Translations under genes and position numbers: made by a program
Part shown: positions 7,474 to 37,600 of the stretch, piece after piece
Layout: every line of letters starts with the position of its first letter
Position numbering within the stretch: the stretch's first letter is position 1
The notes under the pieces: generated by a model
Databases searched by the model: none
What the model was told of the DNA's origin: nothing
The model's input: only the letters and a program-made list of their open reading frames with translations
Source of the DNA: an uncultured virus (IMG/VR IMGVR_UViG_3300044674_003822)
Lineage: Duplodnaviria > Heunggongvirae > Uroviricota > Caudoviricetes
IMG/VR virus record: IMGVR_UViG_3300044674_003822
Location: 1-64,000 of that record
DNA: 64,000 nt
Reading direction: 5' to 3' (one strand)

Positions 7474-8382
7474 ATGGATAAGCCATTAACAAACATGCCA
7501 AACATACCAGGAACGCCCACAACTAGTGCGGCTGAAAATCCACTTAAAAAATATTACAGACAACCGTCGATCTACATCAAGTTGCCCTCCAAGGGACGGT
7601 TCTACGATGCAGACAGTTTCACACCCACAGAGACCGGTGACATACCCATATTGCCGATGACAGCAAAGGATGAGATGACTTTGAAGACACCAGACGCACT
7701 GATCAACGGTCAGGCCACGGTCGATGTCATCGAAAGTTGTGTGCCGAACATCAAGAATGCCTGGAGGATCGTCAATCATGACTTGGACGTCATACTATTG
7801 GCCATGAGGATTGCGACCTATGGTGAGAGCATGACCTTAACTGGTTCGGTGCCTAATACCTCAGATACTGTGGAACACACAGTCAGCCTTCCGGCAATGT
7901 TGGAAGAGGCGGCCAAAGAAGAAATCACAGACACTTTTGCAACCAAGAGCGGGTTTCAGGTCAAAGTAAAACCAATGGACTACAAGCAGTTAACAGACAC
8001 ACAGATCGGTGCATTCGAGAAACAGAAACAGTACGCGGCGATGATGTCAAAAGAAGGGATAGACCCTGAGGAAAAAGGAAAACTGTTTGCTGAAAACTTC
8101 AAGCAGTTGACTGAATTGAACTTCAACGTGCTCTACAATGCGATAGCAGAACTACACACACCAGATGCTATTGTGGTTAAGGACCACGAACAAATAAAAG
8201 AATTTCTTGACAACGCACCAAAAAAAGTTGTCGAGGAGATACAAGAAGGCCTTGCAAAGAACAGAATACAAGGAAGCATCAAACCTATCAAGTTGAAAGC
8301 AACTGAAGAGCAGATCATGAAAGGTGCTCCGGCCAATTACGAAATGCCGATCACGTTTGATAGCTCAAATTTTTTCGCATAA
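7474..8382 (+). CDS. gp26: Baseplate hub assembly chaperone (gp26-like)
   Basis: NPLKKYYRQPSIYIKLPSKG...PMTAKDE...TPDALING...DLDVILLAMRIATYGE, characteristic of gp26-like proteins; ends in the slippery sequence encoding SNFFA. Confidence 0.75.
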   Translation: MDKPLTNMPNIPGTPTTSAAENPLKKYYRQPSIYIKLPSKGRFYDADSFTPTETGDIPILPMTAKDEMTLKTPDALINGQATVDVIESCVPNIKNAWRIVNHDLDVILLAMRIATYGESMTLTGSVPNTSDTVEHTVSLPAMLEEAAKEEITDTFATKSGFQVKVKPMDYKQLTDTQIGAFEKQKQYAAMMSKEGIDPEEKGKLFAENFKQLTELNFNVLYNAIAELHTPDAIVVKDHEQIKEFLDNAPKKVVEEIQEGLAKNRIQGSIKPIKLKATEEQIMKGAPANYEMPITFDSSNFFA

Positions 8383-8979: not shown

Positions 8980-9442
8980 GTTTGTAACCAAACCCAATCC
9001 CATATTCGGTGACCTGCCGCCGTGCCCATTCGCACAGAAGGCCATAGTGGAAGATAAAGTCGAATTTGTCGAATTGAATGGCACTGGCAACTACAACACA
9101 TTATATCAGTTCATAACACAGTTTGATTTCGAAGAAAAAGATGTATTGTGTATGATCGCTGAACCCGATCAATTTTCCGCCAAAGAGACTGTCAGTATAG
9201 CAAATGACTTGAATCGATATTTCATGAGGAAGGACATTGTTGTCCTGGAAGATCATCCAGAAATCAATGAGCACGTCGAGGATGTGAAATTGAACAACGG
9301 CAAGTATATTTTATTTTTGGCACAGAGTTTAAGCAAGTTGAACAAATTCTCCAAGATGTTGGAGACCGGACCTTACTACAAGAATTGGTCTAAAGGTTAT
9401 CTGGAATCAGTGAAAGGTTTCCGAGAGAAGAAAAGTCAGTAA
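8921..9442 (+). CDS. DUF1415-like protein (PPCPFA motif)
   Basis: IKNWISEFVTKPNPIFGDLPPCPFAQKA and LEDHP motifs; AAGGA RBS at 8911-8915 favours ATG 8921 over the track's 8888 start. Confidence 0.55.
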   Translation: MTTQQKKQNPTQTIKNWISEFVTKPNPIFGDLPPCPFAQKAIVEDKVEFVELNGTGNYNTLYQFITQFDFEEKDVLCMIAEPDQFSAKETVSIANDLNRYFMRKDIVVLEDHPEINEHVEDVKLNNGKYILFLAQSLSKLNKFSKMLETGPYYKNWSKGYLESVKGFREKKSQ

Positions 9443-10163
9443 GTTTACTGTCCCTCCTACACAATCGTTTGTACTGTTTTTTGTTGGTGCTCCATTCGGT
9501 GCCGGTCCACCACTCGAATCCTCGATAGTTGGCCTTGTATTCCGACGACAGCTCGTAGCCTGATCCCATGTAGAAGTACCTCACGTAGTTCTCACTGGCC
9601 CACTCGATCTCCATGTCCAGCGTTATGTCACTTATGGGAACGGTGTTGGCATGGATCACACTCTCCAGACCCGCGAGGTCCTGGGAGTCATATGAGTCTA
9701 TGGTGGAGTAGTTGTCTTCCTGGTACCTGTATCGTTTCTGTTTGGTGAATCCTATGATGTTGTCCGCGGTGCCGGTGTAGAACAGCATGAACTGATCACG
9801 CCTGTGGTAGTGTCCGAAGGGATCGTAGTCCGCGCCAAATTTTTTCCGTTCCATGTACTGCTTGTATATGTGCGGCAGTCCCAACAGTTTGACCATCTCA
9901 CTTGCGTCGATAACCTTTATGCCGATCTGCTCGCCGGCGTGCGTGTGCGATTTGTATCTAGGACGCCATTTGTCCATGTTGATCCGTGTGCTACGTGATT
10001 GGTAGAATACCTCACGATGATTGTTTATGGGGTGGTCCAGTGCGAGCCAACCCCGGTCGATCGCTTCCGATTCCTCATCCTCGTCCACTATGGCCATGGG
10101 TCGGCATATGACCAGATCCTGCTGTTCCTGTTTGCCGAATGTGTGGTCGAAGAGTAGTTCCAT
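9390..10163 (-). CDS. Aminoacyl-tRNA--protein transferase-like protein (ATE1/Bpt family)
   Basis: N-terminal AIDRGW...YQSRSTRI and C-terminal EIEWA...YFYMG.GY....YKANY.GFEWW resemble the ATE_N/ATE_C pattern (EI..A....Y.YLGY......YK..Y). Confidence 0.6.
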   Translation of the reverse strand: MELLFDHTFGKQEQQDLVICRPMAIVDEDEESEAIDRGWLALDHPINNHREVFYQSRSTRINMDKWRPRYKSHTHAGEQIGIKVIDASEMVKLLGLPHIYKQYMERKKFGADYDPFGHYHRRDQFMLFYTGTADNIIGFTKQKRYRYQEDNYSTIDSYDSQDLAGLESVIHANTVPISDITLDMEIEWASENYVRYFYMGSGYELSSEYKANYRGFEWWTGTEWSTNKKQYKRLCRRDSKLTDFSSLGNLSLIPDNL

Positions 10164-10179
10164 TGTGTGATATTTAAGG

Positions 10180-10612
10180 TGCTGTCAGAGACGGCTTACG
10201 CCATCTGAAACTTCGCTTACGCTCGTTTCTTTTTTAACTTACGCAGTTGTAAAAAACTTGAACGCAGTGTGCGTTCTCTGTGGTAGATGAGCAGTCACAA
10301 TTCGGCTATTTCTAGCCGAACTGACTTAAACTCTGTGGTGAGTTCACAGTCACTATACATCGCTACTCTCGTCGGGCGGTTGTGCTGTACCCGTTTGCTC
10401 ATTCATTACAACGCGAATCTACCAAACCCCTGTATAATGGTTTTTGGTAAATCTGAGGTCTATCTTTTTCTAGGAGCCTCATCATTTTTTGCTGTTTGCA
10501 TCTAAGGATTCACCTGTCGCTTGTTAGCCGCATTTCCTTGCTCACTGGTTGCGATGCTATGTTTGCCTATGGGGAAATTTGTTTGCCTGGTGGAAGGATA
10601 CGGTTGCCCTTC
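10180..10612 (-). ncRNA. Putative large structured non-coding RNA of unknown family (alternatively a transcribed replication origin)
   Basis: ~500-nt gap without a credible ORF; at least 7 hairpins, several with GNRA loops on the minus strand (GTAA x2, GAAA, GAGA, GCAA); long-range complementarity; upstream sigma70-like promoter. Confidence 0.6.
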
Positions 10613-10618
10613 AACTAC

Positions 10619-10647
10619 TATATAACACAGATAAAAATGTCAGTCAA
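10619..10647 (-). promoter_or_regulatory. Sigma70-like promoter for the structured RNA
   Basis: TTGACT (10647-10642)-17 nt-TATATA (10624-10619), with TG just upstream of the -10; predicted start ~10612 coincides with the first hairpin. Confidence 0.6.
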
Positions 10648-10670
10648 TCTTTTTGGCTTTAAATACCGCT

Positions 10671-11078
10671 ATGCATTGGACGTACCAAGGAAATGAAATT
10701 ACCAACATGCCGGAAGATGTTGTGGGATTTGTTTATCTCATAACAAATACAACCAACGGTAGGATGTACATAGGCAAGAAACTTGCTAGATTCAAGAGAA
10801 GTCGTCCACCACTCAAAGGCAGAAAGAACAAGCGTAGATACAAGGTTGATTCTGACTGGCAAGACTACTACGGTTCAAGCGATGATCTCACAATCGATGT
10901 CAACAAAATTGGTAAAGATAAATTCACGAGGGAAATACTTTTCTACTGCAAGTCCAAGGCGGAACTATCTTATGTTGAGGCACGTGAACAGTTTGCACGT
11001 AAGGTCCTAGAAACTAATGATTACTACAATGGTCATATCCGTGTGAGAGTACACGGCAAGGGAATAATCAAGTCATAA
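10671..11078 (+). CDS. GIY-YIG endonuclease (endonuclease II/DenA-like)
   Basis: GFVYLITNTTNGRMYIGKK, WQDYYGSS, FTREIL, E...YYNGHI; single domain with no C-terminal DNA-binding repeats. ATG 10671 chosen because TAAATA lies 5 nt upstream. Confidence 0.85.
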   Translation: MHWTYQGNEITNMPEDVVGFVYLITNTTNGRMYIGKKLARFKRSRPPLKGRKNKRRYKVDSDWQDYYGSSDDLTIDVNKIGKDKFTREILFYCKSKAELSYVEAREQFARKVLETNDYYNGHIRVRVHGKGIIKS

Positions 11079-11136: not shown

Positions 11137-11331
11137 TTACGCCGCTGTCTTCGCCGCGTTCTTGACTTCCTGAATTTCTTTTCTTCTTGCTTTGATCAAC
11201 TTAGACAGATTTGCCAATGCTTTTCTGGCTCTGGTAGCAGATGCTTTAACACCCTTCTCTACGAACTTACCATTCTCTTCTGAGTAAGTTTGAATCTCTG
11301 TCATGATCGATTCGTGTGTTTCATTTGACAT
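11137..11331 (-). CDS. Histone H1-like nucleoid protein (Hc1 family)
   Basis: KFVEKGVKASATRARKALANLSKLIKARRKE matches the Hc1 signature; strong GAAGGAG RBS; TTGACA upstream at 11413-11408. Confidence 0.8.
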   Translation of the reverse strand: MSNETHESIMTEIQTYSEENGKFVEKGVKASATRARKALANLSKLIKARRKEIQEVKNAAKTAA

Positions 11332-11421: not shown

Positions 11422-13197
11422 TTAAACAATTATCTCAACATCATTGGCATAGTTGGTAAAACCATTCTCTTTTACAACTTTCAGTACACTATTCACTCTG
11501 CTCACCAACTCGTCTTTGTGTGATATTAGGAAAATATTTTTTTGTTGTGTACGACTCATTTCTTTCAGTACAGCCATTGAACTCTCAACACCAGATATGT
11601 CCATACCTGCATCCACCAGTTCGTCAATGAATAGCAAGTTGATCTGTTGATAAAGACTTTCCCACACATCTCGGAATGCCCAACTCAAACTTAGGATCAA
11701 TCTGTTTCTTTCTCCCCTACTCAAATTGTCAAAATCCAATTCTCTGCCTAGTTCTTCTATACGTACAGTGAGGTCTGATTGGAAAGTCACTGTGTGTGGC
11801 AGTTTTACCTTGCCCAAGAAGTATGCTAATCTTTGATTCAGGTATGTTAAGTTTTGTTCTATTATCCTTGTTCTTATGAAAGAGTCTTTGGCTGTCAGCA
11901 ATTTGTACAAGAACTCCTGGTGCCTGTGCAAGTCTTCTAGTTCGTTTGCTTTCTCAAAATCAATTTTTTGTATTGCTGTTTTAGTTAATTCTTCGACCTG
12001 TTCGGCATATGGATCCTGTTTCTTCTCGTTTTGTTCAAGTTGTCGTTTGAGATCCTTCAATGATCCCTTGTGATTGTACGCCTCGTCCATGGAGTCGTAG
12101 TAGGTATCCGGGGTGTTGCCCAAATCACCAATTTCGTCTATGCCCTGTTGTATCTTTGCAAGATCACTTTCAAGTTTTGAACTGTATTCTTTGGATTCAG
12201 TCAATGTTGTTTTTAATTTGCCAACCAATTGCTCGTGCTTGTCATCGTGTAATTCTTGCTCACAAGTCGGACATTTTTGTTGAGCCGCATACTCTAGGTC
12301 ACTTTCTGTTTTTTCCACAGTGCTTTTTGCTTTTGTGTACGAGTCTTCGTGATACGCTTTTTCCTTTTGTAAACTCAATAATTTGATATAGTTTTCGTTA
12401 TGTTTCTGCAGACGTTTGTGTGCATCCAGTTCCGCTTTGATGTCTACTTTTTCCAGTTCCGCTATTGCTTCTGCAAAACTTTTTGAGTCTTCCTCTTTTT
12501 GTGTTTGCCATGCACTCGACCTTATTTTTAAACTTTCAATCGATTCTGTAATTTTTTCATTAGATGCAACCCTGGCATCTATTTTTAGTTTTTCTTCAGT
12601 AAGTATTTGTTTGGTTGCTTTTTGCTTTTCTTTTAGCAGATCTGCTTTTTGTGAGAGCAGTGTTATACCAAGCAACTGCTCAATAATTTCTCTTTGTTCG
12701 TTTGCCTTGGTTGATAAAAACGGTTGTGTGTATGTGTTCAACGCAATTATGTTTTTAAACATGGAATGGGTCATGCCCATTAGTTTATTAATTTCTACCT
12801 GTGTTTCTCTGTTCTCACCTTGTGCTTCGTTGCTTTCTACGTTTTGTTCGATGTTGTTTGCGTAGAATCTAAACACCTGTGGCTTTCTTCCACGCTCTAT
12901 TGTGTACTCCACATTGTTCTTTACAAACTTGACACTGACCAACATGCCTTTCTCGTTGGTCTTGTTTACGAGATTGTCTCTTCTTATGTTTGTCAATGCT
13001 TCGCCAAAGAACACATATGAGAGTGCATTAATGATTGTGGTCTTACCGGTACCGTTCCTAGCACCTGCGTCATCACCACCCAGGTCCATGTTCTCACCAA
13101 TCACGAGCACAAGATTTTTGTTGGCAAAATTTATTGCCTGGGCCTGATTGCCCACGCTCATGAAGTTTTTAACTATTAGTTCTTTAATTGTTAACAT
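11422..13197 (-). CDS. gp46: Recombination endonuclease ATPase subunit (gp46/Rad50/SbcC)
   Basis: Walker A RNGTGKTT, zinc hook CPTC, signature LSRGE, Walker B LLFIDE, H-loop ISH. Confidence 0.95.
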   Translation of the reverse strand: MLTIKELIVKNFMSVGNQAQAINFANKNLVLVIGENMDLGGDDAGARNGTGKTTIINALSYVFFGEALTNIRRDNLVNKTNEKGMLVSVKFVKNNVEYTIERGRKPQVFRFYANNIEQNVESNEAQGENRETQVEINKLMGMTHSMFKNIIALNTYTQPFLSTKANEQREIIEQLLGITLLSQKADLLKEKQKATKQILTEEKLKIDARVASNEKITESIESLKIRSSAWQTQKEEDSKSFAEAIAELEKVDIKAELDAHKRLQKHNENYIKLLSLQKEKAYHEDSYTKAKSTVEKTESDLEYAAQQKCPTCEQELHDDKHEQLVGKLKTTLTESKEYSSKLESDLAKIQQGIDEIGDLGNTPDTYYDSMDEAYNHKGSLKDLKRQLEQNEKKQDPYAEQVEELTKTAIQKIDFEKANELEDLHRHQEFLYKLLTAKDSFIRTRIIEQNLTYLNQRLAYFLGKVKLPHTVTFQSDLTVRIEELGRELDFDNLSRGERNRLILSLSWAFRDVWESLYQQINLLFIDELVDAGMDISGVESSMAVLKEMSRTQQKNIFLISHKDELVSRVNSVLKVVKENGFTNYANDVEIIV

Positions 13198-25100: not shown

Positions 25101-25631
25101 TCACTTTCTGATCAGATAGTGTATCATCCGGTCAAGTACAAGATACTTTTCGGTAGCAACGCGGACGAGGAATTACAAGCCACGTTCAAAGTAGTTAAGA
25201 ATCCTAAAACCAATGTGACAGACGCAGTAATAAAGACAAGAGTAGTTGCGGCAATAAACGAATTCTTTGCACTGGACAACTGGGATTTTGGAGATACATT
25301 TTATTTTACAGAATTAGCCGCTTACATACACAATCAATTGGCTCCGGATCTGTTGACAGCAGTGATAGTTCCTAACCAATCAGGACAGGGTTTTGGGTCT
25401 CTGTTCCAGATAGATTCAGCGTCAGACGAAATTTTCATCAGTGGGGCCACCGTTGGTGATGTAACAATAATAAGTGCATTGGGAGCCAATCAGTTATTGG
25501 CATCCGGCACAGTTGTGACATCAACATCAACTGCCACGAACAATACTACATCAGGATCAGCAGTATCAGGCTCTACTACAACAACGTCCGGTTCAGGTTC
25601 AAACACCGGCAGTAGTGGATCAGGATACTAA
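22143..25631 (+). CDS. gp6: Baseplate wedge protein (gp6-like)
   Basis: DFETLRRTMVAYL, FRVDLNARENFLETAERRDSVLRLARLINY, FGDG, QNRMITAEDY. Confidence 0.88.
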   Translation: MATTDRQNRLLVAEDWQKIYQSFQQADFKSYDFETLRRTMVAYLRENYPDDFNDFVESSEYVALIDLIAYIAQALSFRVDLNARENFLETAERRDSVLRLARLINYNAKRNRPATGLLKINSMSTTQDVVDSSGTNLSNQTVIWNDSANSNYREQFIAILNAANQTGQLFGNPRESGPIGGIDTEVYTLSSNQIDLPLFKYVKSIGGVSRQFEIVPSTINNSDSIYESDPIPGTGLTYTYRSDGGGDSSNNTGFFFLFKQGTMQYADFTVDTAITNYIRSITVNNINDSDVWLYKLDQFGQMSEKWTQVPALSGNNAIYNSLSGSERNIYNVVTKADDKIDLVFGDGTFSNLPLGSFRTYHRISDNVKYAITPADMQNVTLSVPYTDNFGAQQSLTLSVGLRQSVYNSAAAETSESIKEKAAQVYYSQNRMITAEDYQVVPLSASQEIVKVRSINRSASGISRAKEILDPSGAYSNVSVFADDGILYREESTQQFTFTFNNRGDIQSIMDGSIENKLKQPYSRHFYYFKYGTKDLSTLTATWNSTTTSTNTNTGYFTSTGALSIGDFATSNFKFAKPGALVKFTSPDTRGFLNDSLVTAGTDDAQDRKWAKIGALVGDGANSGVGNLESGVGPVTLSSVIPNGAVASAVIPNFTTSFAQDLELNMMDRIEQFEEFGLRYDINSETWKVITATNLSTSSVFSLDNTGDTSATNLDASWWFKFTNDGNTYTVTYRKLEYIFESESQNKFHYDTEEKIYDYKTGKSVKDTVKVLKTNSLISTGNSIGYPITWQVTDTVKEADGFQDNRKVKVGFYDDDDDGVVDNPELFDIIVEPTLSESTKFVFFEKYTSYDNISRFRPYAASNFVVTQNESDINLNTATYTDNQLFYFYASDEDVIKKYDLSTNTLSTTTDYLARKGRRSINFQYKHNAGQETRIDPSVSNIVDVYMLERTYDNLYRIWLQDGGVKPATSTSDQLRINYSGTLNPLKSLSDQIVYHPVKYKILFGSNADEELQATFKVVKNPKTNVTDAVIKTRVVAAINEFFALDNWDFGDTFYFTELAAYIHNQLAPDLLTAVIVPNQSGQGFGSLFQIDSASDEIFISGATVGDVTIISALGANQLLASGTVVTSTSTATNNTTSGSAVSGSTTTTSGSGSNTGSSGSGY

Positions 25632-28600
25632 TGGCAGATAACACAACTAATTCACTAACAAATAACGAAGTTGTCAAACAAGGCAACAACGAGTACAGAC
25701 GTACGGTTCAACATTTACCTGCTTTTTATAGAACAGACACTAACCAGAGGTTCCTTTCCAGCACCGTAGATCCTTTGATACAGAAAGGTGCACTTGAAAG
25801 ACTAGACGGGTTCATAGGTAGACAAGACGCATACACAAGGCAAGTCACAGACAGATATGTTTCTGCAACCAATCGGGATAGATATGCATACCAACTGGAA
25901 CCGGCAGTAACATACACAAACAGAGACACAACGTCGGTCAACCCAGAGGATCAGGTCAAGTTCACAGGTACGTATGATGATTACATCAACCAGATCAAGT
26001 ACTTTGGAGGAAAAATCAATAATCACGACAGACTAAACAAAGAAAAAATATACAGTTGGAATCCTGCGATTGACTACGACAAACTGATCAATTACAGAGA
26101 GTATTACTGGATACCAGAGGGACCGGGATCCATAGAAATAGATTCTGTAGGACCAAATGCAGTGGCGGAATATTCAGTAGAGAATTTAGCACAAGGTGCC
26201 TACAACTTCTCACACAGGGAGAATGAAAACAATCCTATATTGACACTTTACAGAGGCAACACATACAAATTTAATGTAAACGCAAAAGGACATCCGTTCT
26301 ACATAATGACTGAGCCATACAAGGACGGGTCGACAAATTTATTTTACACGTCAGGTGTGACCAATGCTGGCGCAGACACAGGGACAGTGACTTTTACAGT
26401 GCCTACGGGAGCACCGGATATACTTTACTATCAGTGTGGTAATCATGATGCCATGTATGGTATCTTACAAATAAAAACTATCACGTCGACAACAGAAATC
26501 AATCCTGCCGATGACATAATAGGTGCAAAAAATTACAGTCTGAGAACTTTAGATCTTTCAAATGGTATGAAGATCAAGTTTCCGGCCAGCCTAGTGGGAT
26601 CAGATTATCAGAACAGGGAATACTACGTTGAGGGCGTTGGAGATTCAATAACATTGACAGACGTTGATGACATGATAACTCCGGCCAGTTATTCCACAGA
26701 GACGACAGTATTATATGATGCAGTTGGTTATGACACAAGACCTTATGCAAAGGCTTTCTACACACCAGACGCTAAAGATTACATAACAATTAAGAAGGAT
26801 TCACGTGACCAGAACTCCTGGTCAAGATATAACAGATGGTTCCACAGATCTGTGATTGAAGAGACTGCTAGGGTTTCGGGTTTCACACCTGTACTGGATG
26901 AGGACAGCAGGGCAAAGAGACCCATAATTGAGTTTGATTCAGGACTAGCACTTTATAACCATGGTACGGTAGCCAAAAGATCCGTAACACTTTTTGATAC
27001 AGTAACGACAGATGCTTTCAGCAGTGTGGTCAAACAGACAGGTTATATCATTGATGGATTACCTGTAGAAGACGGAATGAGAGTTGTGTTTTCTGCAGAC
27101 ACTGATTCTACAGTTAAAAATAAAATATATGTCGTGAACTTTGTCACAGCAGGAGATTCCACACAGGTAATATCCTTAACAGAAGCATCAGACGGCACAC
27201 CAGCGGCCGACGAAAGTATTTTTATTGAGTTTGGTTCAGCAAACCAAGGAAACACATATCACTATGATGCAACATCTGAATCATGGAAATTATCTCAACA
27301 GAAGACCGGAGTGAACCAACAGCCGTTGTTCAAAATGTTCGACAACGAACATACTAGTTTCGACGATGCAACAACGTATCCCAACTCATCTTTCACAGGT
27401 GCAACTGTTTTCAAATTTGCAACGTCGGATACAGCACCGACAGACACAGTATTGGGTATAAAAGTGAAATACAACACTGTCAACAACATCGGTGACATAG
27501 TGTTTGAATCAGATCATACATCTGGAACATTCACATACAAATTAGGTACTACAACATTTACAAAGAATCTCGCCGAGGGACATCTACACTATACAACAAG
27601 CAGAACAACGCACAATTCTAGAAGTTCGTGGATACAGAGCACAAACCCTAGCAAACAACGAGTCATAAGGACTTTCACAGTTGGGAAAACAGAAAAAAAA
27701 TTATTCCCTGTGGACTGTTATGACAAATCAGCATTATTGACCGATCTTGAAATTTCAGTTTCTGTGAATGGTGAGAAAAAATCGCTGACAACAGATTACA
27801 CATTAGTAAATGGTACTAAAAACAGATACGTAAAATTTGTCAAAGAACTTATTGTGGATGACCAAATAAGGTTATCTGTGTACAGTGCCGCCGACAAAGT
27901 GAAAGGCAAAGGCATTTATGAGGTTCCAGACAACTTGTCCACAAACAGCATGAATGGCAAGTTAGGCACATTCACTTATGGTCAGGTGTTGAGACATGTA
28001 AGAGATATATTTGAGAAGAACACTAATCTCACAGGATCGGTGCCAGGTAGCACAAATTTAAGAGATAATCCAGACTCACGTTTTCTAGGTGGTACAATAC
28101 ACCAACACGAAGGTCCATTACTGCCGGCAATATACGGGCTGATAGATCGAGATACTAATTTAATTAATGCCATTGAGTACACAGCTCATGAATATGAAAA
28201 ATGGTATGATGCATTTCTGACACATATAACAGGTACTGCTTACGAGGGAGTTGCCGCTGATAGGGTGGATGAAATAATCAGCAGTATTACTACTGGAAGG
28301 AATTCGAGTTTTCCTTTCTACTATGAAGACATGTTGGGGTATGGAGAGAATGTTACAACTAGATCATACACGGTGTTGGGTGCATCACAGACAGAATATG
28401 CAATAGATTCAATTCATGACATAACCAAAATAAGCAATAGGGCAGTGTACGTTTATCTTAATGATGTGCAGTTGTTGGTCGGCTCACAGTACACATTCAG
28501 CACCACAGACGATAGTGTCAACATAACAGCAACACTTACCGAAGGAGATAGGATCGTAATAAAAGATTACGCAGACACAACAGGAAGTTACATGCCAACT

Positions 28601-31600
28601 TCACCGACCAAACTAGGCATGTATCCAAAGTTTACACCAGAAATATTCACGGATGACACATACATCACAAGCACGACAGTGATAAGAAAACATGATGGAT
28701 CCATAATTAAAGCATACGGTGACGAACGTGATTCTTTAATACTGGAATTAGAGAAAAGAATTTACAACAATCTTAAGACATCGTACGATAACACACTTAT
28801 CAACATAAATGACGTATTGCCAAATGTTTTTTCTTCAACGGAGTATACGGTAGATGAAATAAATGACATAATGGCAACAGATTTCTACTCATGGGCGGGA
28901 CGTGGAAATGTACAATACATCAGTAACACAACATTCGTAGAAGGATCACCATTCACTTACAACTATGCACGATCAACATCCAACAAGTCAGGTGACAAGT
29001 TGCCGGGATATTGGAGAGCCATATACAAAGAATATTACGACACAGATGCACCTCACGTGAGACCATGGGAGATGCTAGGACATTCAGAAAAGCCAACAGA
29101 TTGGGACACAACTTATGGAACTGCACCTTACACCTCAGGTAACAGTATTTTATGGAACAAAATTGCCACAGAGTCAGGAAGGTACGGCAAACCAGGCATA
29201 CTAAATTACTTGCCGGTAGACACATCAGGTAACCTGCTCGACCCGTTGGCGATAGGGTTAGTGGACAACCTCGACGTGGCAGGCAGGTCAGCAGGATGGA
29301 AGTTTGGTGATCAATCACCAGCAGAAACTGCCTGGAGGAGATCGTCAGCATATACTTTTTCAGTGATAAGAACATTGGCACTGACAAAACCCGCCAAGTT
29401 TTTCAGCAACTTATTTGATCCATCTAGATTGACAACAAATGTTGCAGGAAATCAGATAGACACAGACACAGGAGTCAGGTCCACACTGGCCACTTCTAAA
29501 TATCACCTAGAGACTGTAACAGACAACAACACAGGAATAACGACGAGGTACCACACAGCGGGTTACCAGCCCTTTATTGTGAACCACTTGGTGTCAAAGA
29601 ACCTTGATCCAAAAACTTTCTACTATGACAGGATGAAAAATCTTAAAGTTCAACTGGCATACAAATTGGGAGGATTCACTGACAAGGATAATATAAAAAT
29701 ATTAACAGATTCAGTATCTCCAGGATCAACATCAGGATCCAAGTTCATACCTGATGAGAACTACAAGATTTTATTCAGGACGTCAAACCCTGTTGACAGT
29801 TTCCAATATTCGGGTGTACTGATTGAGAAGAACACGGATACAACAACAAAAACAGATGGTTCTACTGTAACAAATGTTGGTGGGTATAAAGTTCTAGGTT
29901 ATTCAAAATCAAAACCGTATTTTAACTTCAATTATCCGATAAAGACCACAACTGCTTCAGCAGTGTCAGTGGAAGGTTCGGTGACAGTAGAGAAATTTAA
30001 CATCTACCAAGAAGCCACACAGACTGTGCCTTATGGGCATGTGTTCGACACCATACAGGATGTGGCTGACTTCTTGTTTGGATACGGACACTGGTTGGAA
30101 GACCAAGGGTTCCGCTTTAATAAGTTTTCAAAGGAACTGAAGGAAACATTGAACTGGTCAAACGCAGTTAGAGAATTCTTGTTCTGGACAACACAACAAT
30201 GGACACCAGGATCAGCGGTAACAGTATCACCTGCGGCAGACGGTTTCGAGTTAGACACAACAGACGGTATTGTAGGCAAAATGCGAAATCTTTCGGGAGA
30301 CTATTCTATACTTGACTCCGGTGGAAGAAAAATAGATGTAAGAGAAATATCAACAAAGAGATTAGGTAAAACATTCGAGTTAGGAATCAAATCTGCAGAT
30401 GTTGGACTATACAATATTGCTTTGAACACCGTACAGAAGGAACACATTCTGTTGTTTGACAACAGCACCGTGTTCTCGGATATCATATACGAACCATACA
30501 CAGGATTTAGACAAGAGAGATTAAAACTTGTTGGATGGAAAACAGCCGGATGGAACGGCGACTACTATGCTCCAGGGTTTGTGTTTGATGCCGCACAGGT
30601 CACATACTGGTTGGCCAACACAGATTACAGGATCGGGGATTCAGTAGAGTATCAGGCCAAATTCTATGTGTCCAAGGCAAATCACAATTCGGGACCTAAG
30701 TTTGACATAGAGAATTGGACATTGAAAACAGAAAAACCAGCACCACAACTAATACCAAACTTCGAATACAAGATTTCACAATTCAATGATTTTTACAATC
30801 TAGAAACGAACAACTTTGATGAATCTCAACAAAAGTTAGCACAGAGATTGATCGGGTATCAGTCAAGGGATTACTTAGAAAATCTTTTCGTCAACGACGT
30901 ATCACAGTACAAGTTCTATCACGGATTTATAAAGGAGAAAGGTACCAAAAATGCAATAGACAAGATACTCAAAGCCAAGTATGAGGGCGAGGACATTGAT
31001 CTAGATCTACATCCTGAATGGATGATAAGGACAGGAAATTTTGGTAACACAGATTCAACGGAAAGCATACAGATAACACTCAATCAAAATCAAATTACTT
31101 CAGATCCTCAGAGCATTGAGCTACTAGAAAACACAAAAGACACGCCGGAGTACGCAAGATCAGAAGGTGTTGCTAAAGATAATTTTTTCTACAAGCCAGT
31201 GGAGTACACAACCTCAACAACGTTCAGTAGGTTGGATTACACTAAAGAAGGAGTTAATAGAGATACTGCACAGGTATTCAAGACTGCTGGCTATCCACAG
31301 TTGGGACAGGTACAACACACAGCATTCAATATAACAGACATTTTCAACCTAGATGTAAACAGAGTTGCATCAAGCGAATTGATATGGGTGGCCAATAAAT
31401 CTAATAGAGATTGGGACGTGTTCAGGATCACAGCGGGAGATTTTAAAATTGCAACTGTGCGTTCAGTAAATGGTGCCTCGCAGTTGGAACTTATCTTCAC
31501 AGGTTCACATGGATTGTCACAAGGTACACAGACAACAGAAGCAGATTACTTCGCTATAAGCAACAGCGAGGAAGAAACGCTTAATGGAGTTTATCAGGTC

Positions 31601-34600
31601 GCTTCGATAGTGGACCACAGGACTGTACTCATTGATTACACAGGTAATACATCTTTCATACCGGCATTGGAAGATGGATCGACTGCAGACACTTATGGCA
31701 ATGTCTATAAGTTTATATCTGTGAGAGTAGATTCCATGGACAACTGTAATGACAAAATAAACTATGACAAGTACAGGGATAGAGACAACAGCATAGAACG
31801 TGAGGGCGACAAGGTTTTCGCAGACGCAGACAGTTCGGGACTGTGGCGTGTTTATGAAAAGCAAGATCCATACACACTGAAAAACATTTTATCTCCAGAT
31901 TCAGCAACGACCCAACAAGATTTTGGACACAGGATAGTTGCACGTAATGACGGAAGGACGGTGATCGCATCTGCACCTGGCAAAGCACAAGGGGAAGTAC
32001 ACTTCCTGTTCAGGTCCACAGCAACACCAGGGTCACTGTTCAGACCAAACTCAACGGTTACAACGACGGCCGGAAATGACAATACAAGTAAACTAGGTGA
32101 ATCACTGTCGATGAGCACGGATGAGAACTTTGTTATTGCGGGTGCACCGTATGCCAATTCTCTTGGTTCAGATGGTAGCACAAGATTCGCAGACGCAGGA
32201 GCCATAGAGTTATTTGTGTGGGATCCGTCGACGTTCAAGTACGGAACACTAGTGACAAAGAGACCACCCACAGACCAGGCATCACAGAACTTTGGCTGGG
32301 CACACAAGATCGCTGAGCCAGGTGCAAGTTCAGTCAGAAGCACGCCAACAAAATACATGTTTGTGTCCGCACCTGGACTTAATTCAGACACGGGCAGAGT
32401 GTACATGTATGAGTGGGGTATAGGTGCTGATGGATCAACGTATGATTCATGGACTCAGTGTGCAACAATAGATTCAGCAGAAGGTGGATCAGGGCAGAGA
32501 TTCGGTCACCGGTTGGAAGTCAACGACAACGGGGACATATTGGCTGTAAGTTCGATCGCACCAGGCAACGCAGGCAAGGTTGACATATTTGTTAGATCAT
32601 CACACTCCAATGACGATAGTGTGGCACATTCATTCACTCATGTACAAACACTGACAGGAGTATCAACAGATGGCTCTAGTTTGAACACACAATTTGGTGA
32701 TTCCGTTGCAATGAGCAAAGACGGAACACGATTGATTATAGGAGCACCGGGCGTTGACAAAACAGAGCAAGACGATGCAGGTGCAATATATTATTACAAA
32801 TGGAACGCAGACGGTTCCACAAACACATACACATTACAACAGACCATGGAATCACCTGATTCCCAAGTCAACATGAGATTTGGAACGTCATTAAGCATGA
32901 ACCAAGCAGGCACCAGGTTGATCATAGGCGCACAGAATTTTTCAAACGTCAGAGAGATGAAGTTCGACGCCGGAGAAACAACATTCGATCTACAAGACAC
33001 AACAATATCAGATACCAACACAGAATCAGGCAGTGCCTACACGGCCACGATGTACAACACCAAATTTGTCATAGATGACAGATTGATCACGGATAGTGTG
33101 TCAGCACACGACGGGTTCGGCAAAGGAGTTTGTGTCACAGACAACACAGTGCTGGTAGGAGCGCCACAGGATGATGGCAACATCGCATCGGACGGAAGTA
33201 GCAGGGTGCAGAACGACGGAACACTGTCGTGTTTTGATCTATCTGTTTCAGGGGAATATGCATGGAAAAATATAACTTTTGAGACACCGTTGATCGACAT
33301 AGAGAAGGCCGGACAGGTATTTGATTTCAACAACAAAACTAAACAAATAAGAGATTTCTATGACCTTTATGATCCAGTGCAAGGTCGTATATTGGGGGTA
33401 GCAGATCGTGAAATCAATTACAAGACAGAGTGGGATCCAGCGACCTACAACACAGGCCAAGACGAAAATACAAAAACACCATGGGCGGAGGAACACCTGG
33501 GAGAAGTATGGTGGGATCTATCTCAGGTAAAATGGCTTTGGTATGATCAAGGTACACAAGAATACAAATTTAATCACTGGGGACAGAAATTTCCAGGATC
33601 GACAATAGACATATATGAATGGACAGAGTCACCCGTGCTTCCAAGCGTATGGAACACCAGGTCTGGCACACAACAAGGAGCAGTGGAAGGCATATCAGGA
33701 ATAGCCGCGTATGGTGATGACTCTAGTTATAACATAGTTCAGAGATATAACTCTTCCGTCAACAGATTTGTGAACATCTATTACTTCTGGGTAAGGAACA
33801 GATCAACTGTACCTACAAATAGTGTTGTGACGAGAAAGAACTCCACATCATTCGTGTCAAACCTTATAGACTTTCCGGAAAGATTTTCATACAAGTATTA
33901 CTCTATAACAGACACCAACATGTTGATCATCAACAAGATAGGCGCACTGACAAACAGTGACATTGTTCTCAACATAGACATCCGGACAAACAACTTCGAG
34001 GGCGATTCACACAGCGTATGGAAACTGGCGAAAGAGGGTGATAAGGACTGGAGACCAGGACATCAGATAGAGACACGTTGGTGGGATTCACTCACAGGCA
34101 AGAACGTAGCAGGTGATATTGTTCCTGATCTAGACCTACCGGTCAACAGGAGATATGGAAACAACATAAGACCTAGGCAGGGGTGGTATGTGAACAGGTT
34201 CAATGCATTGAAAGAAATAATAGATTATGCAAATGATGTGTTGAAGAAACATCAACTAGTAGGAACAATCAATCTTAACAACTTAAACTCTGCTGATCCA
34301 GAACCAACAGCACAGAGTTTAGAATGGGACGCATATGTAGACACCTACGCAGAATTGACATACATCGACACTAGAGAGTTCTCTGGAACAGTCAACTATC
34401 TTGTGAAGGCGGACGAAACGGCCAATAATTATTGGGCAATATATACTTGGGACGGTACTGAATGGACTAGGACAAAATTACAAACTTACAACACCTCCGC
34501 TTATTGGGGTTACACAGATTGGTATCAAGTACTGGAACATCATGGTGAGACAGGTATGGTACATGATGCAAATACAAAAATTGACAAACAGGTGACATAT

Positions 34601-37600
34601 CAGTATGAATTGGATACATTGGATCTTGCTGTTGGCAAACATGTAAAAGTGACATCAGCCGACACGGGTGGATGGAAACTGTTCATGAAAACAGCAACAG
34701 GATGGAGCAACGTTGGAACAGAAAACGGCACAATTAGATTAAAAACAACACTGTATGATTATTCCCAGGATGCCACGGGATTTGCAGGACAGGACAGTTT
34801 CGACGACAATTTCTTTGATCAGGATCCGTCAACAGAAACTAGAAAAATTTTAACAGCACTCAGAGATGATCTTTTCATCAATGATTTAGCGATAGAATAC
34901 AACACATTGTTCTTCACCGGACTTAGAAAGGTTCTAGAAGAACAAACATATGTGGACTGGATGTTCAAAACATCTTTTATCAATATTAAGAATTCTGTAA
35001 GGAAACTAGATCAGAGAAAAACTTACACCATAGGCACCGACAGTTGGATAGAGAGTTACATAAATGAAGTTAAACCTTTCCACACAACGATTAGGGAGTA
35101 CAAGTTAGGTTACACAAACACAGACACACATGATGGTATATTCTCTGACTTTGATAATCCAACGTTCTATGACCCAGAGACGAACGCTATAAGATCTTTA
35201 AACGTTGACTCGGACACGGACAAGTTGACCGAATTCCCACACCAGATGTGGTATGACTACCATAAGAAATACGTGCAGTCCATCACAGTGACACACGGAG
35301 GTTCAGGATATCAACAGATACCGATAGTTACGGTGCTCGGCGGAACAACAGGATCCACAGGACCTTTCCAGATACAGGCTACAAGTTCATCAGGCACAAC
35401 AAGTGGACAGTTTGGTTACTACTATCCTTTGTTCACAAACGAGAAACAAGCAGAGATTTATGACACACAGAATGGTGGAACTGGCACAACGAAGACTTAC
35501 ACGTTCGATGGCTATCCGGGTTCTTTCTATGGACCAACGGCATCAACAGCAGAATCAACAAGTGACAAGTCTGGGGCCTTCAAGATGTACATAACACCAA
35601 CAAACACTGCGGCAACAGCCACAGCGACAATACAGAATGGTGCAGTCACAAAGATAACTGTCACGGGAATTGGTGCAAATTACAACAGCACTCCTGTGGT
35701 GATAATATCCGGGGGACGAACGGACGGTTCAACACCAACAGACACTGCCAAGGCATACGCAAATTTGAACAATGACTTGGTCAGAGATCTAGATACAACA
35801 ATAAAATTTGACAGGGTGTCTAGCACGTCCAGGGTACAGGACTGGACGGCGTCTACGGCGTACGCTTACAATGATCTAATTAGACACAAAAATCAATTGT
35901 ACAAAGTGACAAAAGCGTTTACGGCAACAACCGATTTTGATGACAATGTAGCAGATCTTTACAAGGTTTATGGAGATGAGACAGGTTTAACAGCCGCTGA
36001 CAGGACAAAAGGTTTCTACACGCCAGGCACAGGAATGCCGGGCAACGAACTTGACCAGGTCATGACAGGTATCGACTACGGCGGAACAATGGTGACAGGA
36101 TTGCTGTTCAACCAGAGCCAAGGGTGGGACAGATCGGGTTGGTATGATTTTCCATGGGACAACTATGGAGGTTCTAGAGTCAAGGCATTCAAGGGAGATG
36201 GTTCATCTAACACCTTCACATTTGATACCGCACCTGCAACAACAGAAGTTTATCAAGTCTATATAACAGAAGATGACAGCACAAGGAGAAAACTCACAGA
36301 TGTTGTGAGGGGTGATGGGTCAAGCGTGGTCATGCCTGTTGGCGGATTGAGTATAACACCGAACGCAAACGCATTGGTAGAATTCATACCGTTCGATGAC
36401 GACGGTGTGTTGACACCGACAGATGACAGGACATTGGATTCCATAGTCAAAGGTGGACTTTTTGGATCAGCATTAGGACATGCACCTAGTGATATAATGT
36501 TAGAAGGCGACGACTTTGTATCACCAGATACTAGTTACGCACCTGAAGAGACTGTGCCAGGTCAGTTGTTTGACACATTAGACATAAAAGTTTACACATC
36601 ACCAGAGTCAGGAGTTCCATTTATCAGCGAGAAAAATTACACAGGAAATGGAAGCACAACAACTTTCGCCATAGGAGACTTTCCAGGAACATTGGGATCA
36701 GTGACAGTGAGTGTTGGTGGCGTTGTGAAAAAACTAACAACAGATTACACAATCAATGTTGCAAACAAAACAATAACATTTGGATCGGCACCTGCTAACG
36801 GCAGTGTAATAGCAACTAGGGTTTTTGCTATATCAGGGGATAATTACAGGGTGCTTGACACATTCGTTGGAGATAATTCAACAGTATCGTTTACGACTTC
36901 GTCAAGAAGTGAGTTCAATCTAGATTCAACTGTATCAGACATATACGTGACACAGGATGGAGTACCAAGGACAGATTTTACACGAACCATTACAGCGAAT
37001 ACGGTTACAATAACTTTCAATTCACCGGTACCACCGACAGGTGCCTTTATACAGGTTGCAGGATTCAACAAGTCAGCAAGTTCTCCAACAAGGAGTTTTG
37101 CAAGTATAAGGAATCAAGAACTAACATATGCAAGTGGAACGAACAGATACACATTGACATATCCACCAGGTTCTATAGGTCCATTCTCAGGTTTGACAAC
37201 AGTGGAAGTAAACGGTAGGGTGCTACGAGGACCAGACAACACGTATTATGTTGGTGACGGAAGCACATACACTTATGGAGTAGTGTCAGGTCTAGAGGAT
37301 GATTCCACAGTTGACCCAGCAAAAACAATTTCATCTGCTTCGCAGGTAGAAGTTTATGTGAACGGAACTAAGAAAGATTTAAACACCGACTACACAGTTG
37401 ATATAGGAAATCAAAATATAGAGTTTGTTACATCAGCAGTACCAACATCAACAGATGTAATCTGTATTTCAACTTTAGTTGATCATCAGTACTTTAATCA
37501 AGGCACAGATATCATATTGGTACCTAGTGCTATAACTTCACCGTATTCACTTTCAAACAGCGACAAGATTTCAGTAACAACATTTAATAATGCTTTGGGA

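Follow-up and report, generated by a model that had tools for sequence, protein, structure and literature searches.

A predicted gene for a large structured RNA with twin co-varying words in uncultured aquatic T4-like phages

Here we describe a predicted gene for a large non-coding RNA in a stretch of 64,000 nucleotides (the window) from an uncultured virus of the class Caudoviricetes (IMG/VR record IMGVR_UViG_3300044674_003822, positions 1 to 64,000). The minus-strand segment 10185-10612 appears to be a free-standing gene for a compactly folded non-coding RNA of ~390-430 nt, in the 3' domain of which two identical short words change in parallel among relatives. The segment lies in the widest gap in the window's list of open reading frames (ORFs), where 489 nt (10164-10652) are without a long ORF. 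An initial annotation of the sequence had already pointed to this gap as the largest in a densely packed window, and had placed there a promoter-driven, structured minus-strand RNA of ~430 nt. Both statements were borne out, the latter by strong covariation, by the lack of coding periodicity and by contigs from marine RNA libraries that match the conserved block. Large RNAs with comparably conserved structure are rare, and have usually proved to be ribozymes, riboswitches or assemblies. A class of large orphan structured phage RNAs was known beforehand, as was an orphan Rfam motif that overlaps a distant branch of the present family; what is new is the complete architecture, the marine branch and the pair of co-varying twin words.

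Conservation and fold of the RNA

The minus strand of the element folded better than shuffled sequences (z = -5.0; 0 of 100 shuffles equalled it). For the plus strand, z was -1.9. Covariation among homologues, which the initial annotation had proposed as a check, was assessed in an alignment (A1) of 48 distinct homologues with a mean column identity of 77%. RNAalifold predicted 69 pairs from A1, 24 of them with compensatory double changes. A structure model of 87 pairs in 16 helices, including a pseudoknot, was 97.1% paired in the 48 homologues, as against 31.7-36.8% when the partners were slid by 1-3 columns. Changes on both sides were found in 33 of these pairs (266 cells), and none of 500 shuffles matched four of the five measures. 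Several GNRA loops and long invariant single-stranded stretches were also kept in the RNA.

ORFs of 35-72 codons are present on both strands of the gap and could be taken for hidden small protein-coding gene(s). However, their frames were unconserved (median stop-free frame, 44 aa), period-3 power was below the shuffle mean, gap runs in the alignment were mostly not multiples of three, and the changes in the stems were compensatory. We consider the likelihood of a coding function negligible.

Using the 257-aa protein encoded next to the RNA as bait, 80 viral loci were fetched, and in 65 of them the element lay upstream of the 257-aa gene on the same strand, with 79-97% nucleotide identity over ~300-490 nt. 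Conservation spanned ~10570 to ~10185, giving a conserved RNA body of ~386 nt (10185-10570, minus strand), which is represented in A1. Where the adjacent bait protein was only 47-65% identical, the element was still 79-81% identical over 300-400 nt. By this comparison the RNA element is more conserved than its neighbours; non-coding sequence that changes less rapidly than the gene beside it must have its own function.

A 19-letter pattern taken from an invariant block (10392-10374) was used for scans and matched at least 119 viral and at least 118 metagenome stretches, so the RNA is common in aquatic viral and metagenome data. The pattern also matched 38 genome-contig stretches, of which nhmmer upheld four (L218, L234, L236 and L237); the other 34, with core-model scores of 24.1 bits or less, fit chance matches to a 19-mer and were rejected. 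The four are contigs of metagenome-assembled genomes labelled Neomarinimicrobiota, Pacearchaeota, Pseudobdellovibrionaceae and Betaproteobacteria TMED41. The three with enough flanking sequence (L218, L234 and L237) bear the genes of the phage synteny described below, and contigs of this kind that carry the RNA are probably mis-binned phage contigs. The nhmmer searches revealed a graded family whose most distant members retain the core only. We built a core covariance model (R1) of 143 positions with the window as seed, comprising an A-rich linker, two hairpins, GCGUU and a hairpin with an invariant 11-nt loop, and all 29 divergent viral loci scored 34.7-50.8 bits over positions 1-143. No match was obtained among 50,697 GenBank phage records, either by blastn with the window locus and three divergent subfamily members or by tblastn with the 257-aa protein. 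The RNA family is widespread and occurs in hundreds of uncultured aquatic T4-like giant phages without a cultured relative. Literature searches, with preprint supplements outside their scope, did not turn up an earlier account of the RNA.

The ORFs of 142 distinct RNA-bearing loci were clustered for synteny. The RNA family occupied one syntenic slot in at least 140 distinct viral loci, and in every subfamily the gene order was gp46 (SbcC-like), a 64-aa Hc1-like protein, often a GIY-YIG gene and variable inserts, the RNA, and a convergent baseplate-hub module. The window has the same slot, with gp46 at 11422-13197 and the hub at 7474-8382. The 257-aa gene, which starts ~20 nt past the last hairpin of the RNA, was directly downstream in 57 of 74 loci of the subfamily, farther away in 4 and absent from 13, and in one divergent locus (L104) the RNA is located between convergent genes. 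Since the slot is constant while the 257-aa gene is variable, and since the genes flanking the RNA of L104 are convergent, the RNA constitutes an independent unit, more than a mere leader.

Read from its 5' end on the minus strand, the conserved body begins with a 5' domain (10497-10557) made of helices 10557-10553/10502-10498 and 10539-10535/10508-10504 and an inner hairpin; helices 1-3 were 98.9-99.6% paired, and four pairs had changed on both sides. It is followed by the A-rich linker (AAAAAAUGAU), on the 5' side of a UGAGG/CCUCA hairpin (10454-10481) with an inner stem (10473-10471/10462-10460); in these helices (4-5) an exchange between AU and GC was seen in 19 of 48 rows. In the next, long hairpin (10416-10453; 11 bp + 2 bp), 9 of 13 pairs had changed on both sides, and 10 of 11 in a separate test; its loop takes part in the pseudoknot. 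The core hairpin with the 11-nt loop (10373-10393) holds the 19-mer 10392-10374, which is invariant in A1, and its closing pair alternated between CG and UA in 14 of 48 rows. A central hairpin with a GAAA loop (10298-10323; 11 pairs, 4 with double changes, 99.6% paired) stands between two sequence modules, and the RNA ends with two 3' hairpins with GUAA loops (10189-10229; 10229-10225/10211-10207 and 10206-10200/10195-10189), which belong to helices 14-16 and beyond which, at 10184-10188, contigs end. GCGUAA(G/A) occurs three times in this 3' part (10189-10245), mostly as GUAA-capped hairpins, and extra tandem copies were seen in relatives (L047 and L009).

The pseudoknot is formed by the 3' strand 10352-10358 and the loop 10438-10432 of the long hairpin (7 pairs, 99.4% paired, 3 with double changes). 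It was found by a mutual-information scan of 74 distinct sequences, which gave four covarying pairs, and it was retained with other sequences in the divergent loci L086 and L104, as read by eye. This pseudoknot is the true long-range contact of the RNA. Two other long-range pairings had been proposed from the sequence of the window, and neither was supported among homologues. The pairing 10287-10293/10396-10402 was 91% paired; wherever it varied, which it did at two positions in 11 and 15 of the 48 rows, it broke, and it did no better than shuffles. The second pairing, 10281-10288/10417-10424, was 76% paired and competes with the best-supported helix; the switch suggested on the basis of the latter pairing lost its support with it.

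The local stems fared better. Those annotated at 10454-10481, 10416-10453, 10301-10320, 10207-10229 and 10186-10207 all showed compensatory changes in the 48 homologues. The stem 10260-10276 was only 85% paired, and some relatives are without it. An extension of the central hairpin by 10293-10297/10322-10326, also annotated initially, had no compensatory change. The segment AGUCA (10322-10326) can pair with UGACU at 10348-10352 or at 10293-10297, giving pseudo-symmetric alternative helices; neither helix showed a compensatory change, and L063 and L064 are without the AGUCA segment. A possible helix closing the 3' domain, GCGUU (10414-10410)/AACGC (10275-10271), was 95.8% paired and invariant in A1, and a compensating UCCGUU/AACGGA was read by eye at this place in L112. 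The AACGC strand is also the 5' strand of an internal hairpin, so the two pairings are alternative.

As annotated, the minus strand has TTGACT (10647-10642) and, after a 17-nt spacer, TATATA (10624-10619), which together make up a promoter-like site (10619-10647; predicted start near 10612). The TTGAC box was kept across relatives, which split into two promoter/leader types. A stricter sigma-70 consensus scan did not call the site, because the second hexamer ends in A. The 5' leader (10571-10612, minus strand) is variable, with repeated AGGCA(A/U), and differs between two groups of relatives; the first hairpin of the initial annotation (10612-10593) sits in this leader and was not confirmed. 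Two to three copies of AGGCA(A/U) were found at the RNA start in every subfamily (10562-10612 in the window), the first near the predicted start.

The 3' end of the RNA is most likely near 10185, at the last hairpin. A terminator scan called the internal hairpin with U6 (10250-10276, minus strand), which is absent from some relatives while the two 3' hairpins stay. The latter were present in every subfamily member examined, including members without the downstream gene, and relatives in which no gene follows have a U-rich tail after the last hairpin. Parts of the stretch were present in 20 sequencing runs from 14 studies, 11 of the runs being on record as RNA. In marine RNA libraries one 394-nt contig corresponded to 10188-10570, another started at 10184 and a third ended at 10568. 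These data are contigs, which carry neither strand nor level, break also where strains differ and may stem from DNA in the libraries; as weak evidence, they are consistent with the gene model. Contig breaks at 10333-10337 coincide with a polymorphic word (see below), and were for that reason read as assembly breaks and not as processing.

Twin words and their possible partners

The 3' domain contains two modules, each placed after a helix (the pseudoknot helix and the central GAAA hairpin, respectively) and each with GUGACUG at its start and a short word at its end. In module 1 (10333-10353, minus strand) GUGACUG is followed by a spacer, ACUC and the word ACCACAG (10339-10333), which is displayed by hairpin 10345-10340/10333-10328. 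Module 2 (10278-10298, minus strand) consists of GUGACUG, CUCAUCU and the word ACCACAG (10284-10278). The words were compared in 107 distinct sequences of the window's subfamily, a set that includes two extra scans with the triplet left degenerate. The first three letters were equal in both modules in all 107 sequences, the triplet being ACC in 67, GCC in 19, AGC in 10, AGU in 8, GGU in 2 and ACU in 1. Each word column had its twin as strongest mutual-information partner, and no Watson-Crick partner column in cis appeared for the twin word in the mutual-information scan. Other subfamilies have other twin words at the same places, and these too change in parallel (GGCAA/GACAA, GGCAU/GACAU, ACGUGAUG/ACAUGAUG, UGCCAAG/UGUCAAG/UGUGAAG/GGUGAAG and AGAUGAU/AGAUGAG). 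In very divergent members the twin words were read by eye or with a repeat finder; since the repeat finder also meets chance 7-mers, only position-matched twin words were counted. The complement CUUGAC(U) in the 5' domain of L104 was tried as a partner of the word and dropped, because the relative L184 is without it.

Since the words are identical and not complementary, both sites would be read by the same kind of outside partner. Parallel, not complementary, co-variation of identical words is an unusual evolutionary signal, and it points to a partner shared by the two sites. We favour a reading in which the RNA would act in trans as a folded scaffold that displays the two words, which would recognise two copies of one lineage-specific partner; the partner could be a base-paired nucleic acid or the two halves of a dimeric protein, and the words would be re-written in step as it differs between phage lineages. 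In the window's subfamily, read-through past the last hairpin would give the RNA a secondary role as a leader for the transferase gene. Overall, we judge this trans-acting scaffold with bivalent sequence recognition about evenly balanced between right and wrong. Its more specific form, in which a conserved scaffold of ribozyme size would present two guide-like words of 7-8 nt for base-pairing to two copies of a nucleic acid from host or phage (for example a pair of tRNAs, or two sites on the same RNA or DNA), is a tentative proposal that we think rather unlikely. If base-pairing were to hold, the RNA would represent a new phage RNA class with guide-like specificity and no associated protein.

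Several observations weigh against the scaffold reading. Neither the window nor two large relatives showed enrichment of the complement of the word, and no significant antisense target was found in the 73-kb source record. Comparison of a GCCACAU genome with ACCACAG genomes revealed no homologous site with a compensating change, the records compared being 16-55% complete. The repeat finder was estimated to meet chance 7-mers in about half of the divergent sequences, contig ends do not establish transcript ends, and the internal hairpin with U6 overlaps the domain-closing helix, an arrangement that also fits a cis-acting switch.

Such a switch would make the RNA a riboswitch- or T-box-like cis-regulatory leader of the Bpt/ATE-like transferase gene, in which folding of the 3' domain, perhaps with a ligand such as a tRNA, would sequester the 5' half of the terminator and permit read-through. 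The position of the gene ~20 nt beyond the last hairpin, in the adjacent place in most loci, agrees with this, as does the competition of GCGUU (10414-10410) with UGCGUUC (10266-10260) for the strand 10276-10270, and relatives of the neighbour protein match arginyltransferase models. However, the RNA is retained without the transferase gene in 13 of 74 loci and in whole subfamilies, is flanked by convergent genes in L104, lacks the internal hairpin but not the 3' hairpins in some relatives, and matched no T-box or riboswitch model of Rfam, so that we regard a leader as improbable. A tRNA is also the proposed partner if the RNA were a double specifier that binds two tRNAs of the same identity through their anticodons, with triplet and invariant A resembling the specifier and purine of a T-box. 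The triplets of the subfamily are all R-S-Y, mostly ending in C, and can be read as codons for Thr, Ala, Ser or Gly, with an invariant A after the triplet; a register of triplet plus A is also readable in other subfamilies, and a candidate tRNA-dependent transferase is encoded next door. On the other hand, the words are anchored on a conserved CUC/UCU with a variable part of 4-8 nt, which leaves no fixed 3-nt register across subfamilies, and for several variants the full 7-nt complement does not resemble an anticodon loop, since it would place a pyrimidine at position 37. The 73-kb record and four large relatives that have this kind of twin word (G155, G156, G158 and G159) yielded no tRNA gene, the six tRNAs of the distant member G157 do not match its word, and Rfam scans found no T-box features. 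A double specifier is decidedly doubtful on these grounds.

A homo-oligomeric 'ornate' assembly of the GOLLD/ROOL kind, with conserved loops making contacts between copies, would suit a large, phage-borne, GNRA-rich RNA with long invariant loops and no protein partner in its synteny. GOLLD, ROOL and OLE form RNA-only multimers, according to a preprint (bioRxiv 10.1101/2024.12.08.627333). Against an assembly, the window gave no match to Rfam models of GOLLD/ROOL-type families, and the twin words, being identical and not complementary, cannot kiss each other, nor was a complementary loop found; we consider it an unlikely explanation. A replication-origin element, which the initial annotation had offered as an alternative in the form of a primer or R-loop transcript, seems very unlikely. 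Here the transcript would serve to prime or open the DNA, and the modules, which form direct repeats of 21 bp, would act as iterons bound by a co-evolving protein. As in iterons, the two repeats, separated by 55 bp, do change in a concerted manner, and the locus is beside the recombination genes gp46/gp47. Yet the compensatory changes in 33 base pairs and the pseudoknot indicate selection on RNA structure, the repeats are only two and without an AT-rich unwinding stretch, no initiator gene or family appeared in the neighbour scans, and the minimum of cumulative GC skew, at 12-16 kb, follows gene orientation and not the RNA.

Relation to described RNA families

As the initial annotation had advised, the window was compared with Rfam. 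There was no match at the gathering threshold over the 64 kb, and at E<=10 over 9900-10900 only a chance hit to sR5 (14 bits) was seen. The models of GOLLD, ROOL, OLE, HEARO and raiA, of T-box (RF00230) and riboswitch RNAs, of RNase P RNA and of group I/II introns gave no match in the same scans, and ARAGORN found no tRNA or transfer-messenger RNA (tmRNA) gene in the window or the 73-kb record. The annotated absence of tRNA, tmRNA, RNase P and intron signatures was thus upheld. The statement that the family was unrecognised needs to be qualified: it holds for the window, but distant relatives carry Polynucleobacter-1 (RF01718) as their 5' domain.

Polynucleobacter-1 was described in 2010 from 16 sequences, and a table in that paper lists the motif as a probable RNA with a probable cis-regulatory role (Weinberg et al. 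2010, PMC2864571). The Rfam model is 141 nt long and has a gathering threshold of 37 bits. It did not match the window, even at E<=10. In the distant members L104 (85.9 bits) and L154 (38.3 bits), the motif lay directly 5' of the shared core. Polynucleobacter-1 likewise comes from aquatic samples, and L104 and L154 have the same core and the same synteny as the present family; the difference is that the 5' domain of the window RNA is built differently, and that in the relatives Polynucleobacter-1 is one domain of a 400-550-nt RNA with pseudoknot and twin modules. Because of its place directly 5' of the shared core in distant freshwater relatives, Polynucleobacter-1 is probably one domain of a larger RNA; we read it as the 5' domain found in the family's freshwater branch. 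An orphan motif of Rfam, until now classed as a short cis-regulatory element, is thereby probably taken up into the family. In the 5' domain of the window, the arrangement GGAAAU-hairpin-GAC (10531-10512) resembles RF01718 positions ~60-82 and is too short to speak for homology. A search for RF01718 in 4 + 151 sampled genomes from the Burkholderiales side found none, and as the control genomes were blank too, this is uninformative on Polynucleobacter itself.

GOLLD and ROOL resemble the window RNA in being large, elaborately folded and phage-associated, with many conserved loops. They occur beside tRNA genes; the window RNA, in contrast, has a fixed slot in T4-like genomes, is smaller and is without an Rfam match, and we know of no counterpart of the twin co-varying words in GOLLD or ROOL. 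T-box leaders have a variable specifier triplet and a conserved purine in a loop beside a helix, and use competition with a terminator. The window RNA shares with them a triplet followed by a purine near a helix and a possible competition between the domain-closing helix and the terminator, but it has two identical words, no T-box sequence or NCCA-binding bulge was seen in it, and it occurs without a downstream gene.

The prohead RNA (pRNA) of phi29 is likewise structured and encoded by a phage; its loops mediate assembly and show covariation among relatives. The loops of pRNA are mutually complementary, whereas the words of the window RNA are identical, and a pair of mutually complementary loops was not found in it; it also belongs to another phage type and has no Rfam match. 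Among origin and primer systems we compared ColE1 RNA II, oriF/oriG of T4 and iteron origins. A promoter-driven transcript in a gap and direct repeats evolving in concert are common to these and the window RNA, which differs in the selection on RNA base pairs, the presence of two repeats only, and the lack of a nearby initiator gene and of a skew signal. A type III antitoxin (ToxI-like), for which we looked for tandem 34-45-nt repeats beside a ToxN-like endoribonuclease gene, was rejected: only two partial repeats are present, 55 nt apart and inside a larger fold, and no ToxN-like toxin family was found among 12 window proteins and 44 neighbour clusters.

Neighbouring genes and genome setting

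The gap is bordered downstream of the RNA by the 257-aa ORF (9390-10163, minus strand) and upstream by a gene for a SegE-type GIY-YIG homing endonuclease (10653-11078, plus strand; Pfam PF19835, E 2.2e-36). The neighbours had been described as nucleic-acid-related throughout. This was confirmed for the GIY-YIG nuclease and for the Hc1 histone-like ORF of 64 aa (11137-11331, minus strand), which belongs to a cluster located immediately upstream of the slot of the RNA in 64 loci. For the transferase, the support came through relatives only: the 257-aa protein had no match in Pfam or PHROG, and 4 of 11 of its relatives matched NCBIfam arginyltransferase models (best E 3.6e-8), which makes it a candidate for a divergent Bpt/ATE-like aminoacyl-tRNA transferase.

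In 75 loci a SegE-type GIY-YIG cluster, encoded on one strand or the other, adjoins the RNA gene, and the highly conserved RNA gene may be a cleavage target of the GIY-YIG endonuclease. The spot flanking the RNA looks like an insertion hotspot. In L042, L048, L122, L064 and L112 a variable island of auxiliary genes surrounds the RNA; the island genes encode a radical SAM protein, a TctA-family transporter, Asp/Arg hydroxylase-like proteins and a pyridine nucleotide-disulphide oxidoreductase with a 4Fe-4S domain.

The predicted proteins of the window include portal gp20, gp46/gp47 (SbcCD-like), the late sigma factor gp55 and the baseplate hub, and the window is a piece of a T4-like phage genome. 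CheckV estimated a completeness of 16% for the 73-kb source record and of 55% for a 196-kb relative, and the closest cultured portals, at ~50% identity, are those of jumbo phages; the genomes that carry the RNA therefore probably measure several hundred kb. The structural gene block of the window contains one uninterrupted open frame of 4296 codons (25631-38521, plus strand).

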